Source: a virus
Lineage: Duplodnaviria; Caudoviricetes
Direction: 5' to 3' (one strand)
Virus record (IMG/VR): IMGVR_UViG_3300024999_000096
Coordinates: 2,162 to 66,161 of that record
Length of the DNA: 64,000 nt
Made by a program: the position numbers and the translations under genes. Each line of letters opens with the position of its first letter. Position 1 is the stretch's first letter. The notes under the pieces were generated by a model, which saw nothing but the letters and a program-made list of their open reading frames with translations, was not told the DNA's origin and did not search any database. Positions 41,440 to 48,934 of the stretch are shown one piece after another.

Positions 41440-41569
41440 GGTGGTTTGGTTTGAAGGTTGGAAGGAGGAGATTAGAATGTAGAAATAAAAGTTTTTAGTT
41501 AGGTATAGGACAAAATGAAATTGTCTATAATATAATCACAAGGAAATAAAAAGGAGTGTGATTATAGTT

Positions 41570-41956
41570 ATGCAAAGAGGAGAGATATACTTAGCTACAG
41601 TTAAAAATAATATTGGAGGATCAGTGCAAACAATTTGTCAAAGACCAATGATAATTATTTCAAACCATATGAGTTTGTTACATTCACCTGTTATTCACGC
41701 AATTCCGCTATCTAGTAAGGTTTTTAAGAAGTGGATACCCACGCACGTTTCTGTGCCAATGGCTAGTAGTGGGCTATTGAAAGATTCTGTTGCACTTTGC
41801 GAACAGGTGATGCTTCTTCCGAAAGAGGTTTTTAGCAAAAAAATAGGAGTATGCAGTAATTTTGTTATAAATAAATTGGAAGAGGGTTTGATGGTACAGT
41901 TTGGATTGTTTAACCATAATCAAAATTCAAAAAATAATGTTGCGTATGCAAATTAA
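41570..41956 (+). CDS. mazF: MazF/PemK endoribonuclease
   Basis: MQRGEIY...GGSVQ...RPMIIISN...AIPLSSK...PTHV...GLLKDSVALCEQV. Confidence 0.85.
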   Translation: MQRGEIYLATVKNNIGGSVQTICQRPMIIISNHMSLLHSPVIHAIPLSSKVFKKWIPTHVSVPMASSGLLKDSVALCEQVMLLPKEVFSKKIGVCSNFVINKLEEGLMVQFGLFNHNQNSKNNVAYAN

Positions 41957-41977
41957 GAAGGAGAGATATATTAATAA

Positions 41978-42664
41978 ATGGATTTTATAGTCTATTTAAC
42001 TAGAGGAACCTTAAACATATTTAACATCAATGTAAATACAATTAATGAGGTATTTAATAACGAGCATTATTCAAAAATCAACAATTTAATAAAAACACAT
42101 AGAAAAAAAGAAATACAAACTAATGCAGAACATGTTTTTCAGTTAGTAGAAAATGGAATTACTCTTGCTTATAGTGAGATACTTAAATATATAATTGTTT
42201 TATTTATAGCAAAATGTTTGTGTTTAAGTATTTCACTTCCAGTATTCTTTGTCATGACTATTTTCACTATTCTTAGAGCTTCCGCAGGAGGGGTACATTT
42301 ATCTACCTTTAATAAATGTTTTGGGGCAATGATAATATGTTTTCTTTCTTTAGGATGGATAGTAACTCAAATACATATAAACTATTTACATTTAATAATT
42401 GGATATATAATAAGTATATATTTAGCTTATAAATATGCTCCTCAAGAAAGAGAAGATAAATCAGATAAAGATTGTGATAATGGTAATATAAAAAAGTATA
42501 GAAGTATATTGTTTGTTACAGTTTGTTGTTTTTTAAGTATTGTGCTTTTAAATTCACATCAAATAGTTAGTATAAGTGTCTTTTTTGGAATATTGCTCGA
42601 AACATTTACAATTACGCCCATTGGAACTAGATTTTTTAAGTGGATCGATGGAGGACATATATGA
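41978..42664 (+). CDS. agrB: AgrB-family AIP-processing membrane peptidase
   Basis: LRASAGGVHLSTFNKC (catalytic His/Cys motif) and YKYAP; multi-pass membrane protein. Confidence 0.9.
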   Translation: MDFIVYLTRGTLNIFNINVNTINEVFNNEHYSKINNLIKTHRKKEIQTNAEHVFQLVENGITLAYSEILKYIIVLFIAKCLCLSISLPVFFVMTIFTILRASAGGVHLSTFNKCFGAMIICFLSLGWIVTQIHINYLHLIIGYIISIYLAYKYAPQEREDKSDKDCDNGNIKKYRSILFVTVCCFLSIVLLNSHQIVSISVFFGILLETFTITPIGTRFFKWIDGGHI

Positions 42665-43281
42665 TCGAAGTAGTAGTTATTGCTTGTTTGGTTGCAAAAC
42701 TCAAAGGATATAAATGGTCTGAAATATTTAAAGTTTTTAAACATTGGAGTGCTTACTCAATTATATTAACCTGTATACTGAACATATATATTGTGTATTT
42801 GATGATTCACGGAGAATATTGGTTTTTACAATATAGTAGTTGTATAAAAAATGTTACATTTCTATTTTACATATTGTTAATTGTTAAATATAAACTAATT
42901 AATATTTCTGTATTTAAAAATATTAACATAAAAAAGAATGGACAATTAATTACGTCACTTACATCTCCAGTTATTATAGGAGCATTATGTGCAACCGTAG
43001 GATCTAAATTAAATGAATTAGCTATGTTTTATAATAATGGTAAAATGCCTGTATTCCCAAGCAATAGTATCAGTATTGGGTTTTCAAAGATTGATATGTT
43101 TGAAAAAGCGTCAGTATTTAATGATTTTCATATATTGGGGAACTACACGACAAAATTAATATTTTTAACCGATACTTGGGATATTTTTTATGTAATAATG
43201 AGTCCAGGTGATATATTGATAAAGTTATTTGCTGGAATGATTTTATATTATTCAATTAAACAAAGTAAAGTTTTACTATAA
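42661..43281 (+). CDS. DUF5317-family membrane protein
   Basis: LNELAMFYNNGKMPV...LIFLTD...SPGDILI; ATGA overlap with agrB. Confidence 0.75.
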   Translation: MIEVVVIACLVAKLKGYKWSEIFKVFKHWSAYSIILTCILNIYIVYLMIHGEYWFLQYSSCIKNVTFLFYILLIVKYKLINISVFKNINIKKNGQLITSLTSPVIIGALCATVGSKLNELAMFYNNGKMPVFPSNSISIGFSKIDMFEKASVFNDFHILGNYTTKLIFLTDTWDIFYVIMSPGDILIKLFAGMILYYSIKQSKVLL

Positions 43282-43296
43282 ATATAAAAATAATGT

Positions 43297-46377: not shown

Positions 46378-46403
46378 ATATGTCAAAAGGAGGAATAAAT
46401 ATT

Positions 46404-47759
46404 ATGAAACAAGATCGTCAAATTCTTGAGGATATTCTTAATTTAGTCATTGAAGATTATGCTAATGACAATCAAATTCAAGAGCAGGTTGTAGGTAAAT
46501 TATTAGAAAGAGGTATCCCAAGGGGTAGAACTACAGGTATATTCACTAAAGCAATTCCTTTAGTCTATGTTGAAGAAATTGAACTATGTTTATTTACAAA
46601 ATACCTTTATGGTTATACTCACCGAACAGAAATAAATCCAGATGAGTTCTTTACAGAGATTGAATTGTCTTCTGCTGATTATTACAAAAAACTTGATAAA
46701 GAAAAGGTTAAATACATTTTACTTCATAATGTTGATCAAATAGATGATAGTCAGTGGTTATGTACAAAAGAAACTTATCAAAATATTAATCTTTATATGG
46801 GTAATGGATTATTGACATATAATCCAAACACTCAAAGACAACTCTTAAAAAGACGAAGTGGAAACAGAATTGTTGAATCTATTAATATTGACAGTAAGAA
46901 AGTATCAGAAATTACAGAGTCAATGATAGATGGTTCTTTTTGTACTAATGCTATTATGTGGAACATTCGTAAAATAAATGGGCAAGAAAAGTTTAAGTAT
47001 GATCTTAAAACTAGAACGTTATTAATTGAACCTGATAACATGTCTACTCTGGTTGACATAATTGATGGTGCGAATCGCACTTGTGGTATGTTAAAAACTG
47101 TTGAAACTAAAAATGATATAGATCGAGTAACATCAATTTATATTCACCACGTTACTGAAGAGCGTGCCAATGAAATAATTCGACAAGAAAGCAAAAGTAC
47201 GCAAATTGAAACTGAATGGGTTGATTTTAAAAATACAGCTAATCCAAATATGGAAGTAGCAAAAGCTATTAATTCTAGGCAAAGGGCAAATGAAATGTTT
47301 AATCGCATAGCCTTAAATGAAAAGGAATTGATTGTCGAAAGCAAATTCATGACATTTGATACTTTGTCAAAATCTATTGAATTTCTTTATGATCTTAAAG
47401 AGGAACCAGTTATCAGAACGTCACAAGTTGAAGATGATATTGTAGAGATATTTAATAATGTTATTGGTATTTATTACTCAAAATTCAAAGCAGAATTATC
47501 TAATACCAAAGAAACTTCATATCTTGCACATAATAACATGTTTATGGGGTATATTATTTTAGGAGATTTATTAAAGCAAAAGTATGGCGATGACTGGAAA
47601 CCTGAATTAGTAAAAGTATTAAACTCTTTAGACTTTGATAAATCAAATAAAATTTGGAAGAAAATTGGAATCGAAAACCATGTAAATTTATCTACATTCA
47701 AAAAGATTTCTGATTATTTTAAAGATGTTGTTTATCAACATGAGAAGGAGGTATCATAA
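46404..47759 (+). CDS. DndB/DGQHR-like protein, SPbeta YopQ(SroE)-like
   Basis: LTYNPNTQR...IIDGANR; about 450 aa; translationally coupled to an integrase-like gene. Confidence 0.65.
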   Translation: MKQDRQILEDILNLVIEDYANDNQIQEQVVGKLLERGIPRGRTTGIFTKAIPLVYVEEIELCLFTKYLYGYTHRTEINPDEFFTEIELSSADYYKKLDKEKVKYILLHNVDQIDDSQWLCTKETYQNINLYMGNGLLTYNPNTQRQLLKRRSGNRIVESINIDSKKVSEITESMIDGSFCTNAIMWNIRKINGQEKFKYDLKTRTLLIEPDNMSTLVDIIDGANRTCGMLKTVETKNDIDRVTSIYIHHVTEERANEIIRQESKSTQIETEWVDFKNTANPNMEVAKAINSRQRANEMFNRIALNEKELIVESKFMTFDTLSKSIEFLYDLKEEPVIRTSQVEDDIVEIFNNVIGIYYSKFKAELSNTKETSYLAHNNMFMGYIILGDLLKQKYGDDWKPELVKVLNSLDFDKSNKIWKKIGIENHVNLSTFKKISDYFKDVVYQHEKEVS

Positions 47760-48763
47760 TGTCATTAACTATTGAAAGAACTTTATTTAACGAAGATCAA
47801 AAAAATCGTTTTCTAGACGAAAAATATCCAAATGAAAGCACCAGAATGACAAATACCTCTATCTTAAAAAGCGTTAGTAGGTTTGAACACGAAAAAAACA
47901 AAGATTTGAGTAAATTTTCTTACGAAGAGGTAAAAGAATTACTAATTGGAATGAAAAAGAAAAGTATTAAATCATTAGGTGTGGCCTACACAATTATTAT
48001 GCAATATTTAGACTGGTGTTTATTTAACAATTACAGTTCAATGAATGTTCTTAAATTAGTTGATAAAAAAGAAGATTTGCCAAAATATGTTCATCAAGTA
48101 GCTCAAAAACTTTCCTATATTACTAGAGGGCAAATGTATGATTATTGTGATATGCTTTATAATTATGTTGATAAAGCATTAATGGTATCATTATTTGAAA
48201 ATATCAGAGGCAGAACAAAGAAAGGTTATACCTATGAAGAATTAAGAAATCTAAAAATGAGTGATCTAGACCCTGAATCAAATATAGTTATTGTAACTAG
48301 AGATCCAGATGATAAAATTAAACATCCTCGACCAAGACCTATAACTGTAGATCCAAGGACTATGGAAATATTAAGAATGGCTTGTATTGAAGACACTTAT
48401 CATAAATTAAATGGAGAAGATACCGGAAGATTTGCTATTATGCCTGTTAAAGATACTCCATATATTCTAAGAACACTTGATAGAAAAAGCAATGATAATG
48501 ATGAAAAAATTACTGTCGGAAATATAAGTTCGAGATTTAAAAATTTCAGAACTTATACAGGTATTAAATTTTTAAATCCAACTCTCATATTTCAGTCAGG
48601 ATTGCTTGATAAATGTTTGAGAAAAGAAATAGAACTTGGTGAATTAAATTCAGAAGATTTTCGACAACTATTTAGAAACTTAGAATTGGATGAGAGGGGT
48701 TGGCAAGGATTAAAAGAAATGTATGAGACATACAAACAAGCGCAGTCGATAACCTCAAGATAA
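47759..48763 (+). CDS. Integrase-fold phage repressor, SPbeta YopR/MrpR(SroF)-like
   Basis: FNEDQKNRFL...FEHEKNKDL SAM-like N-terminus; LFENIRG...ELRNLK; PTLIFQSG in place of HxxR. Confidence 0.7.
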   Translation: MSLTIERTLFNEDQKNRFLDEKYPNESTRMTNTSILKSVSRFEHEKNKDLSKFSYEEVKELLIGMKKKSIKSLGVAYTIIMQYLDWCLFNNYSSMNVLKLVDKKEDLPKYVHQVAQKLSYITRGQMYDYCDMLYNYVDKALMVSLFENIRGRTKKGYTYEELRNLKMSDLDPESNIVIVTRDPDDKIKHPRPRPITVDPRTMEILRMACIEDTYHKLNGEDTGRFAIMPVKDTPYILRTLDRKSNDNDEKITVGNISSRFKNFRTYTGIKFLNPTLIFQSGLLDKCLRKEIELGELNSEDFRQLFRNLELDERGWQGLKEMYETYKQAQSITSR

Positions 48764-48778
48764 TTTGAGGTTATCGAC
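48745..48778. repeat. Perfect 14-6-14 inverted repeat over the repressor stop codon
   Basis: GTCGATAACCTCAA-gataat-TTGAGGTTATCGAC. Confidence 0.9.
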
Positions 48779-48934
48779 CCAATTCCTAATTTATTAAATG
48801 AAAGTTGTGATAAATATAAAAATAATTATATAAAAAATTTGGTTATATTGTCGAAAAACTGGTTATAAAAGATTTATTTTTGTTTTGATTTTCTAGATGT
48901 AAAATGATAGTATGTACATACACGGCAGGAACAC

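Follow-up and report, generated by a model that had tools for sequence, protein, structure and literature searches.

Gene arrangement of the cassette

A 64-kb window of the 66-kb viral contig IMGVR_UViG_3300024999_000096 (the window hereafter, meaning this whole stretch) carries a set of agr-type and mazF-type genes directly ahead of two genes related to yopQ and yopR of the Bacillus phage SPbeta. The contig was rated 44% complete by CheckV, with 56% of the phage lying outside the record; the guanine plus cytosine content of the window is ~28%, and all of its large open reading frames (ORFs) are on the + strand. The nine-gene cassette and repressor region spans positions 41558–48763 on this strand and reads, in order, a stand-alone MazF (MazF1), AgrB, a DUF5317 protein, the membrane protein TM1, the peptide precursor AgrD, a protein that joins a predicted helix-turn-helix (HTH) domain to a MazF domain (the fusion), a second membrane protein TM2, a YopQ-like protein, and a YopR-like protein (Table 1). 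A preliminary description of this DNA had named these nine genes together with their order and coordinates; an ORF reading of the window reproduced every one of them, all on the + strand, and the arrangement is confirmed. Two starts merit comment: the true start of MazF1 may be the ATG at 41570, and while the ORF call for the DUF5317 protein begins at 42640, related loci use the equivalent of 42661.

Table 1 Genes and sequence features of the cassette and repressor region, in window coordinates
Feature	Position	Strand	Basis
MazF1, stand-alone MazF/PemK endoribonuclease	41558..41956	+	PF02452, phrog_1936
AgrB	41978..42664	+	PF04647
DUF5317 membrane protein	42661..43281	+	PF17248
Promoter-like site before TM1-agrD	43297..43325	+	TTGACA-17-TATACT, 11/12, consensus match only
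TM1, hypervariable seven-helix membrane protein	43355..44164	+	AlphaFold2 model; without family match
AgrD precursor	44196..44315	+	TIGR04223
Terminator-like hairpin 3' of agrD	44333..44359	+	Sequence reading, conservation
Promoter-like site of fusion gene	44390..44418	+	TTGACA-17-TATTAT, 11/12
XRE-like HTH-MazF fusion	44484..45296	+	PF02452, predicted fold
TM2, TM1 paralog	45398..46207	+	Sequence comparison
Two promoter-like sites and inverted repeats before yopQ	46228..46330	+	12/12 with TG; 11/12
YopQ/SroE-like, DndB-like protein	46380..47759	+	phrog_5732
YopR/MrpR/SroF-like integrase-fold repressor homolog	47759..48763	+	MrpR_N_CB, PDB profile matches
15-pair inverted repeat, terminator-like, at yopR end	48744..48779	.	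Sequence reading

Homologs of YopQ and YopR close the region

The relationship of the last two proteins to YopQ and YopR, which the preliminary description had proposed, was borne out by several comparisons. The YopQ-like protein matches phrog_5732 (E 6.8e-60), and its Pfam DndB score of 28.7 bits falls just below the cut-off of 29.1; by blastp, it aligns to phi3T YopQ (E 1.9e-16, 84% coverage) and to CST029 of Clostridium phage c-st (E 1.5e-21). The YopR-like protein matches MrpR_N_CB (PF22822; E 4.4e-18, 66.2 bits, cut-off 27), with the C-terminal domain PF22823 scoring 22.3 bits, below its cut-off of 27, and profile searches of the Protein Data Bank (PDB) returned the solved YopR/MrpR chains 8bj6 (E 2.7e-11) and 8a0a (E 4.3e-11), as well as 9rd5_H (E 1.5e-23). 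A weak PADLOC match of the same protein to PycC (E 3.7e-4) was disregarded. Among 50,697 deposited phage records, the closest YopR-like proteins are those of c-st, followed by phi3T and SPbeta. Lysogeny-repressor function is known for the SPbeta MrpR only (PMC10516654); by homology, the YopR-like protein described here is a putative lysogeny repressor.

The cassette is conserved in position and shuffled in sequence

Linkage of the agr genes to yopQ/yopR, the other genomic expectation of the preliminary description, held in every related phage examined. All ten viral loci retrieved via YopR (49–96% identity) carry MazF1, the DUF5317 protein, a TM protein, the fusion and AgrB upstream of yopQ–yopR, and so does a prophage contig of a Clostridium sp. 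metagenome-assembled genome (MAG). A metagenome scan with a profile of the fusion protein gathered 80 loci; hidden Markov models built from the first 12 loci recovered in these an identical gene set in the same order. The fusion is present in all 80 by construction, and the counts are partly non-independent, since some of the loci and of the viral contigs come from shared assemblies. YopQ is found downstream in 39/39 metagenome loci that reach that far, at a distance of 150–3900 bp. The interval from the TM gene to the fusion gene is intact in 70 of the 80 loci, and all 70 contain an AgrD-like ORF (62 detected by pattern, 8 by eye). Two cassette orders occur, with agrB placed before the DUF5317 gene in 35 loci and after the fusion gene in 33. 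The clade that carries the cassette consists of large (~140–230 kb) Clostridium phages.

All genes are under purifying selection, with ratios of nonsynonymous to synonymous substitution rates (dN/dS) of 0.07–0.58. Comparison of the window with its relatives shows mosaic blocks with breakpoints at the cassette borders. In several relatives, though not in the window, large homing-endonuclease-like ORFs of Zn-ribbon/NUMOD-like or GIY-YIG type interrupt the region, either separating mazF1 from the agr genes or immediately preceding yopQ (for instance L013:2513–4249, L017:7677–8453 and L010:5833–7434; L010, L013, L017, L018, L020 and L022 are our labels for related loci, L022 being the MAG prophage contig). 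Such ORFs may be what promotes mosaic exchange between alleles of the cassette. Beyond the repressor genes, a 183-residue protein with a 3D domain (E 2.9e-9) is encoded at 49443–49994, a position that is kept in the relatives.

At E 1e-3, tblastn with AgrB returned nothing from the 50,697 deposited phage records. Our search of the literature found no description of the cassette.

AgrB and AgrD predict a five-residue ring, and no AgrC or AgrA accompanies them

AgrB, the peptidase expected to cyclise AgrD, matches PF04647 (E 2.3e-22), and the GGxH-x6-C motif, the His and Cys of which we take from the Staphylococcus aureus literature to be catalytic, is kept in 69/69 unique relatives. AgrD, 39 residues long when counted from the ATG behind a strong ribosome-binding site (39–42 residues as a range), matches TIGR04223 at 27.1 bits (NCBIfam cut-off 19). 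The predicted ring is C-L-A-A-W, followed by the tail HQPKTPKCIA. The expected layout, in which a Cys or Ser precedes the cleavage point by five residues and the C-terminal tail is charged, is kept in 12/12 curated loci and in all 70 intact metagenome loci. On the strength of these family matches and motifs, AgrB and AgrD should together yield a secreted five-residue ring. A Cys located three to five residues before the AgrD C-terminus (PKC or PNC) recurs in most phage copies and in a candidate host copy. The DUF5317 protein matches PF17248 (E 8.2e-12), a family that is present in 44 of 120 Clostridiaceae genomes searched.

The reported absence of a histidine kinase and of a LytTR regulator from the window was upheld and extended. 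Searches for PF14501 (AgrC-type GHKL), PF04397 (LytTR) and PF02518 gave no match in the viral record; PF14501 and PF04397 were likewise found in none of four related records (166–230 kb) rated 100% complete by CheckV, and PF02518 matched in 0/5 records.

TM1 and TM2 belong to an unannotated membrane protein family

TM1 has 269 residues, and its AlphaFold2 model contains seven long helices at a predicted local distance difference test (pLDDT) score of 77. Pfam, PHROG, NCBIfam and PADLOC gave no match; neither Pfam nor NCBIfam revealed a protease motif or family in it. The distribution of Lys and Arg is compatible with an N-out/C-in topology. Conservation is highest in the first cytoplasmic loop; the inside/outside asymmetry is not clean, and we did not use it as evidence. 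Only four columns are invariant in the TM family, namely P17, F21, D37 and P233. Foldseek comparison of the model to the PDB returned nothing at E <=1e-3, and in a wide structural comparison (VIA) the top Z, 7.7, was to helical proteins that are unrelated, leaving no convincing solved fold. No match to TM1 was found in the 50,697 deposited phage records. When 1.84 billion representatives were searched with a profile built from 23 TM proteins, 217 matches at E <=1e-3 were obtained; the 150 listed measure 56–326 residues, and among those listed none is of kinase length. Alignment of the family to the profile of a host AgrC family using hhalign gave a probability of 0.13%. Together with the lack of kinase-length relatives among the listed matches, this led us to drop the idea that TM1 is a truncated AgrC. 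The TM family is found in just 2 of 294 Clostridiaceae genomes scored, one of which is the MAG that carries the prophage contig.

TM2 is a paralog of TM1, with 21% identity across 253 residues (E 1e-10). The TM2 proteins form a separate, far less variable subfamily: their median pairwise identity is 70% among 47 copies versus 34% for TM1, and the best identity of a TM2 to any TM1 is 45–54%. TM2 is missing from some relatives.

Ring sequence and TM1 are inherited together

The 70 AgrD ORFs specify 49 distinct predicted five-residue rings, 16 of the ORFs having a ring that starts with Cys and 54 with Ser. Mantel tests on the 12 curated loci ranked the neighboring proteins by how closely their divergence follows that of the ring: the correlation is highest for TM1 (r 0.77–0.81, p 0.0005), followed by AgrB (r 0.64–0.71, p 0.0005), the fusion (r 0.55–0.62, p 0.0015–0.0025) and DUF5317 (r 0.44–0.48, p 0.003–0.008), and it is about 0 for MazF1, YopQ and YopR (p 0.49–0.70).

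A pairwise comparison of 55 unique loci with a complete core, in which the pairs are not independent, sharpened this ranking. At zero, one and two ring differences (18, 69 and 168 pairs), the mean identity of TM1 is 0.91, 0.68 and 0.51, compared to 0.86, 0.78 and 0.65 for DUF5317, 0.81, 0.74 and 0.68 for the fusion, and 0.77, 0.70 and 0.63 for AgrB. Among loci with an identical ring, TM1 is therefore the best conserved of the compared proteins; among loci with unlike rings, it is the most diverged. Identity drops to a similar extent in each third of TM1, from 0.90 to 0.67. The HTH domain of the fusion starts nearer to agrD than do two-thirds of TM1, yet its identity decreases only from 0.88 to 0.79; plain distance-dependent linkage is thus insufficient to explain the pattern.

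Individual pairs of loci illustrate the same behavior. L017 and L018 are nearly identical in YopQ (97%), YopR (95%), the fusion (92%) and DUF5317 (92%), and their TM1 proteins share 67% identity with rings SAMWT and SAFWT, respectively. Conversely, L017 and L020 share 91% of TM1 and 95% of AgrD, with their other genes at 58–79%. The expectation that AgrD rings co-vary with the membrane proteins thus held for TM1 by both measures; it did not extend to TM2, which is uncoupled from the AgrD of its own phage; the window (ring CLAAW) and L010 (ring SAIIW) have TM2 proteins that are 89% identical. TM2 could be a second input for another signal.

Two phage-encoded MazF domains

MazF1 matches PF02452 (PemK_toxin; E 2.8e-14) and phrog_1936 (E 8.6e-19). 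It is hypervariable, with 38% identity between L017 and L018, in which neighboring genes are 92–97% identical. The fusion protein has 270 residues, and residues 108–214 match PF02452 at E 2.1e-16. Its AlphaFold2 model (pLDDT 76.8) is divided into an HTH domain (~11–96), a MazF domain (~104–221), and a C-terminal helix. In a search with a profile of the fusion family, solved Bacillus MazF/EndoA chains were hit with E values of 6e-29 to 1e-28. The modeled MazF domain superposes on Bacillus and Staphylococcus MazF with target-normalised Foldseek TM-scores of up to 0.92 (0.91 for the Bacillus subtilis MazF 4mdx_A, normalised to 4mdx_A) and VIA Z scores of up to 18.8. By sequence and model, both MazF domains are of the Bacillus EndoA/MazF type. 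At the positions that we take to hold the catalytic Arg and Thr/Ser, which were located by alignment through solved Bacillus chains, MazF1 retains Arg and Thr/Ser in 53/53 unique sequences each; across 74 unique relatives of the fusion, the first position is Arg in 65 and His in 9, the copy in the window among the latter, and the second is Thr/Ser in all 74.

The N-terminal domain of the fusion returned nothing from Pfam, and a search of the ESM Atlas gave a best score of 0.75 and no lead, so that its HTH label is drawn from the predicted fold: VIA aligned the model to the XRE-family HTH domains of 2ofy_B (Z 9.6), C.AhdI (8.2), SinR (7.8), and HipB and HigA (6.2–6.5), the best alignment having a root mean square deviation of 3.1 over 77 residues. 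In the deposited phage records, the fusion finds matches via its MazF domain only, with 0/47 matching records covering >=80% of the protein. An antitoxin-like ORF adjoining either MazF gene was not found, and the MazE family PF04014 was matched in 0/5 records, a search that did not extend to ribbon-helix-helix type antitoxins. PADLOC assigned no defence family to the cassette proteins.

Promoter-like sites and conserved noncoding elements

The preliminary description had credited the cassette with sigma-A promoters of its own, a claim that was only partly sustained. Sites at 44390 (11/12), 46228 (12/12 with TG) and 46301 (11/12) are present, and the −35 block TTGACAT of the 44390 site, upstream of the fusion gene, is at least 80% conserved across 64 unique intergenic regions. 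The total of promoter-like sites in the region, 63, is however not above the 62.5 expected from shuffles, and individual sites accordingly gain weight from position and conservation only. The hairpin that separates agrD from the fusion gene is kept in the 12 curated loci, with changes on both sides in three of its seven predicted pairs. The sites and inverted repeats in 46228–46330 are conserved among loci that share a YopQ/R allele class.

The yopQ leader contains a UACAU at 46353, closely followed by an inverted repeat and the ribosome-binding site. Of 41 unique regions upstream of yopQ, 17 retain the motif TACATAGCAA around it, all from one YopQ/R allele class.

Relationship to agr operons and arbitrium

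The MAG that contains the L022 prophage provides a view of possible host loci. Its chromosome carries a kinase-less locus comprising genes for a DUF5317 protein, a 161-residue membrane protein, AgrB and AgrD (ring CFWFS). The same MAG has 24 PF14501 matches, one of which, a 436-residue AgrC-type kinase, lies directly upstream of a separate agrB. Going by the source names of relatives of two chromosomal proteins of this MAG, the hosts of the phage clade may belong to the Clostridium estertheticum group. A co-transcribed four-gene agr operon is described for C. perfringens (PMC2706048), and we infer that its two upstream genes (CPE1563-CPE1562-agrB-agrD) belong to the DUF5317 and small-membrane protein families. 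Compared by hhalign, the profile of the 161-residue host family has a weak alignment, over 137 columns, with columns 1–155 of the TM family (probability 63%, E 7e-5); starting from a single sequence, the probability was 0.4%. Because the host four-gene locus matches the gene set and the 161-residue profile shows this weak likeness to the TM family, the phage cassette looks like a captured and remodeled kinase-less clostridial agr operon. The suggestion that the system had been independently built needs correction in this respect, as the cassette does not appear to have been made from nothing. The remodeling would include a TM protein that is ~100 residues longer than the host membrane protein and only weakly similar to it, the insertion of the MazF fusion, and a phage location before the repressor genes.

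Agr genes are known from another clostridial phage: Clostridioides difficile phage phiCDHM1 carries agrB, agrD and agrC (PMC3901668). The two share Agr signal genes on a phage of a clostridial host; phiCDHM1 encodes an AgrC kinase that the cassette lacks, and phage type and genomic position differ. As the tblastn search with AgrB found nothing among the phage records, the two sets of agr genes are not close relatives. Compared to the canonical AgrBDCA system, the cassette has AgrB and AgrD of the Agr families but neither AgrC nor AgrA.

Clostridium phage c-st, which supplies the best YopR match in the phage collection (27.7% identity over 97% of the query, E 3e-22), has a MazF-like gene, CST027, two genes upstream of CST029 (YopQ) and CST030 (YopR) in the stretch CST027–CST030 (5883–10077). 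In contrast to the cassette, agrB, agrD, and DUF5317 and TM genes are absent from the stretch read, and the MazF extension is C-terminal rather than N-terminal. A MazF gene in front of yopQ/yopR may predate the agr cassette. The SPbeta-like Psychrobacillus phage Perkons (MT325768.1) also has an annotated MazF/PemK gene (15274–15597), ~13 kb upstream of its YopR-like gene (28269–29051).

The closest parallel is arbitrium of SPbeta and phi3T. In both cases, a phage-encoded peptide module, here a predicted one, lies a few kb upstream of yopQ/yopR, the signal has strongly diversified together with one adjacent partner gene, and a MazF-type RNase is in play; phi3T arbitrium acts through the host MazF (PMC10769878). 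Arbitrium uses a linear peptide and a receptor in the cytoplasm, whereas the predicted signal of the cassette is an AgrB-processed ring with a seven-helix membrane protein as its candidate partner; the cassette also brings its own MazF domains. No arbitrium family was named when the nine proteins were scanned with Pfam and PHROG, although no dedicated AimR model was run and the scans cover a record from which 56% of the phage is missing.

A model for the cassette and its alternatives

Taken together, a working model emerges in which the cassette is a phage-private, Agr-type cyclic-peptide channel that feeds a lysis-lysogeny switch. We regard the chances for and against this model as evenly poised, with its receptor and output being the parts that we infer. 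AgrD would be converted by AgrB to a ring of five residues, a thiolactone (CLAAW in the window) or a lactone, that leaves the cell; the DUF5317 protein would probably assist in this, as in the agr operons of clostridia. TM1, inherited with agrD as one allele cassette, would be the specific partner of the peptide and most likely its membrane sensor, an assignment suggested by their co-variation. The signal would then pass to the XRE-HTH-MazF fusion, which has its own conserved promoter-like site behind agrD, and/or to MazF1. These proteins would act on transcription or RNA and tilt expression of the yopQ–yopR repressor operon, and the phage would thereby choose lysogeny when many kin phages are around. 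The output step is proposed on the grounds of gene position, the conserved separate promoter-like site, and the precedent of phi3T arbitrium and MazF. In a bolder version, which is possible but which we consider doubtful, TM1 would be the founder of a new class of kinase-less seven-helix receptors that control the XRE-HTH-MazF effector setting the YopQ/YopR operon, with at least 49 private channels making up a second, independently evolved phage-to-phage system, and TM2 would be a conserved second input that possibly serves eavesdropping.

Several observations weigh against the model. TM1 has neither detectable AgrC homology nor a clear solved fold, and its weak resemblance to the 161-residue protein of the kinase-less host agr operon means that it could be a maturation or export factor. 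The co-inheritance of ring and TM1 is in part linkage, since TM1 adjoins agrD, and the AgrD leader changes along with the ring (from 0.94 to 0.68), which points to swaps of a TM1-agrD cassette and not necessarily to stepwise co-evolution. The agr cassette also recombines freely against the yopQ/yopR alleles, as seen in correlations of about 0 and in the mosaic blocks, and the AgrC-type kinases of the candidate host MAG could sense the peptide. Lastly, the MazF cut site UACAU is not depleted from yopQ–yopR of the window: two copies occur in yopQ and none in yopR, versus 2.1 and 1.4 expected from synonymous shuffles, and 29% of equal-sized windows hold as few.

The presence of kinases in the candidate host bears on an alternative that we deem unlikely, in which the captured agr operon is a host-manipulation moron: its peptide would be read by host AgrC- or VirS-type kinases, activating or jamming host quorum sensing (for example in sporulation or metabolism), and the yopQ/yopR site would be a recombination hot spot. 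The gene set does mirror the four-gene locus of the MAG with a related prophage contig, and the C. perfringens operon is likewise of four genes; a kinase match sits directly upstream of agrB in the MAG, the host ring CFWFS is similar to phage rings, homing-endonuclease-like ORFs surround the cassette in relatives, and phiCDHM1 offers a precedent for phage agr genes. Set against this, the cassette occupies the same place in all relatives examined despite free shuffling of its alleles, its TM family is rare in the Clostridiaceae genomes scored, where the prophage-bearing MAG is one of the two positives, and the occurrence of 49 rings alongside a co-inherited membrane protein specific to the phages is more suggestive of private channels than of a peptide imitating a single host signal. 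The role of TM1 can also be questioned from within the cassette. It would be improbable, in our estimation, that TM1 is an allele-specific maturation, export or self-protection factor with sensing placed elsewhere, for example in the MazF domain of the fusion after peptide uptake or in TM2. The weak likeness to the host membrane protein encoded between DUF5317 and AgrB speaks for such a role, as does the co-variation of the fusion with the ring; AgrB is coupled to the ring less tightly than TM1, which makes another allele-specific processing partner conceivable. Yet searches found no protease motif or family in TM1, only four columns of the TM family are invariant, TM2 is uncoupled from the ring of its own phage, and the fusions of L017 and L018 have barely diverged while their rings differ and TM1 has changed considerably.

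The MazF domains themselves invite a further reading, namely that of a weapon for kin discrimination or exclusion: the peptide would mark kin lysogens, and antitoxin-less MazF RNases would strike non-kin superinfecting phages or cells, amounting to a quorum-gated toxin and not a lysis-lysogeny switch. The cassette indeed encodes two MazF-type RNases with catalytic-site residues mostly kept and lacks a MazE-type PF04014 match, MazF1 varies extremely between otherwise near-identical phages in a manner reminiscent of an arms race, and pherotypes are many. We nonetheless hold this reading to be very improbable, as none of the cassette proteins matches a PADLOC defence family, the cassette is fixed before the repressor operon, and MazF1 does not co-vary with the peptide.

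Implications

To our knowledge, arbitrium is so far the sole well-understood case of phage-to-phage communication that decides between killing and dormancy. The cassette, as judged from its genes and their conservation, is a strong candidate for a second kind of virus-to-virus communication. If the lysis-lysogeny model is true, phages would have arrived at a second solution that is assembled from unrelated parts, an Agr ring, a membrane partner and a phage-borne MazF, and placed before the same type of repressor, which would suggest that a common principle underlies the association of peptide signals and MazF RNases with SPbeta-type repressors. The cassette would also provide a function or a handle for the kinase-less clostridial agr operons, the receptors of which are poorly known, for DUF5317, and for an unannotated membrane protein family, and the ~50 natural pairs of ring and TM1 alleles constitute a ready set for testing specificity.

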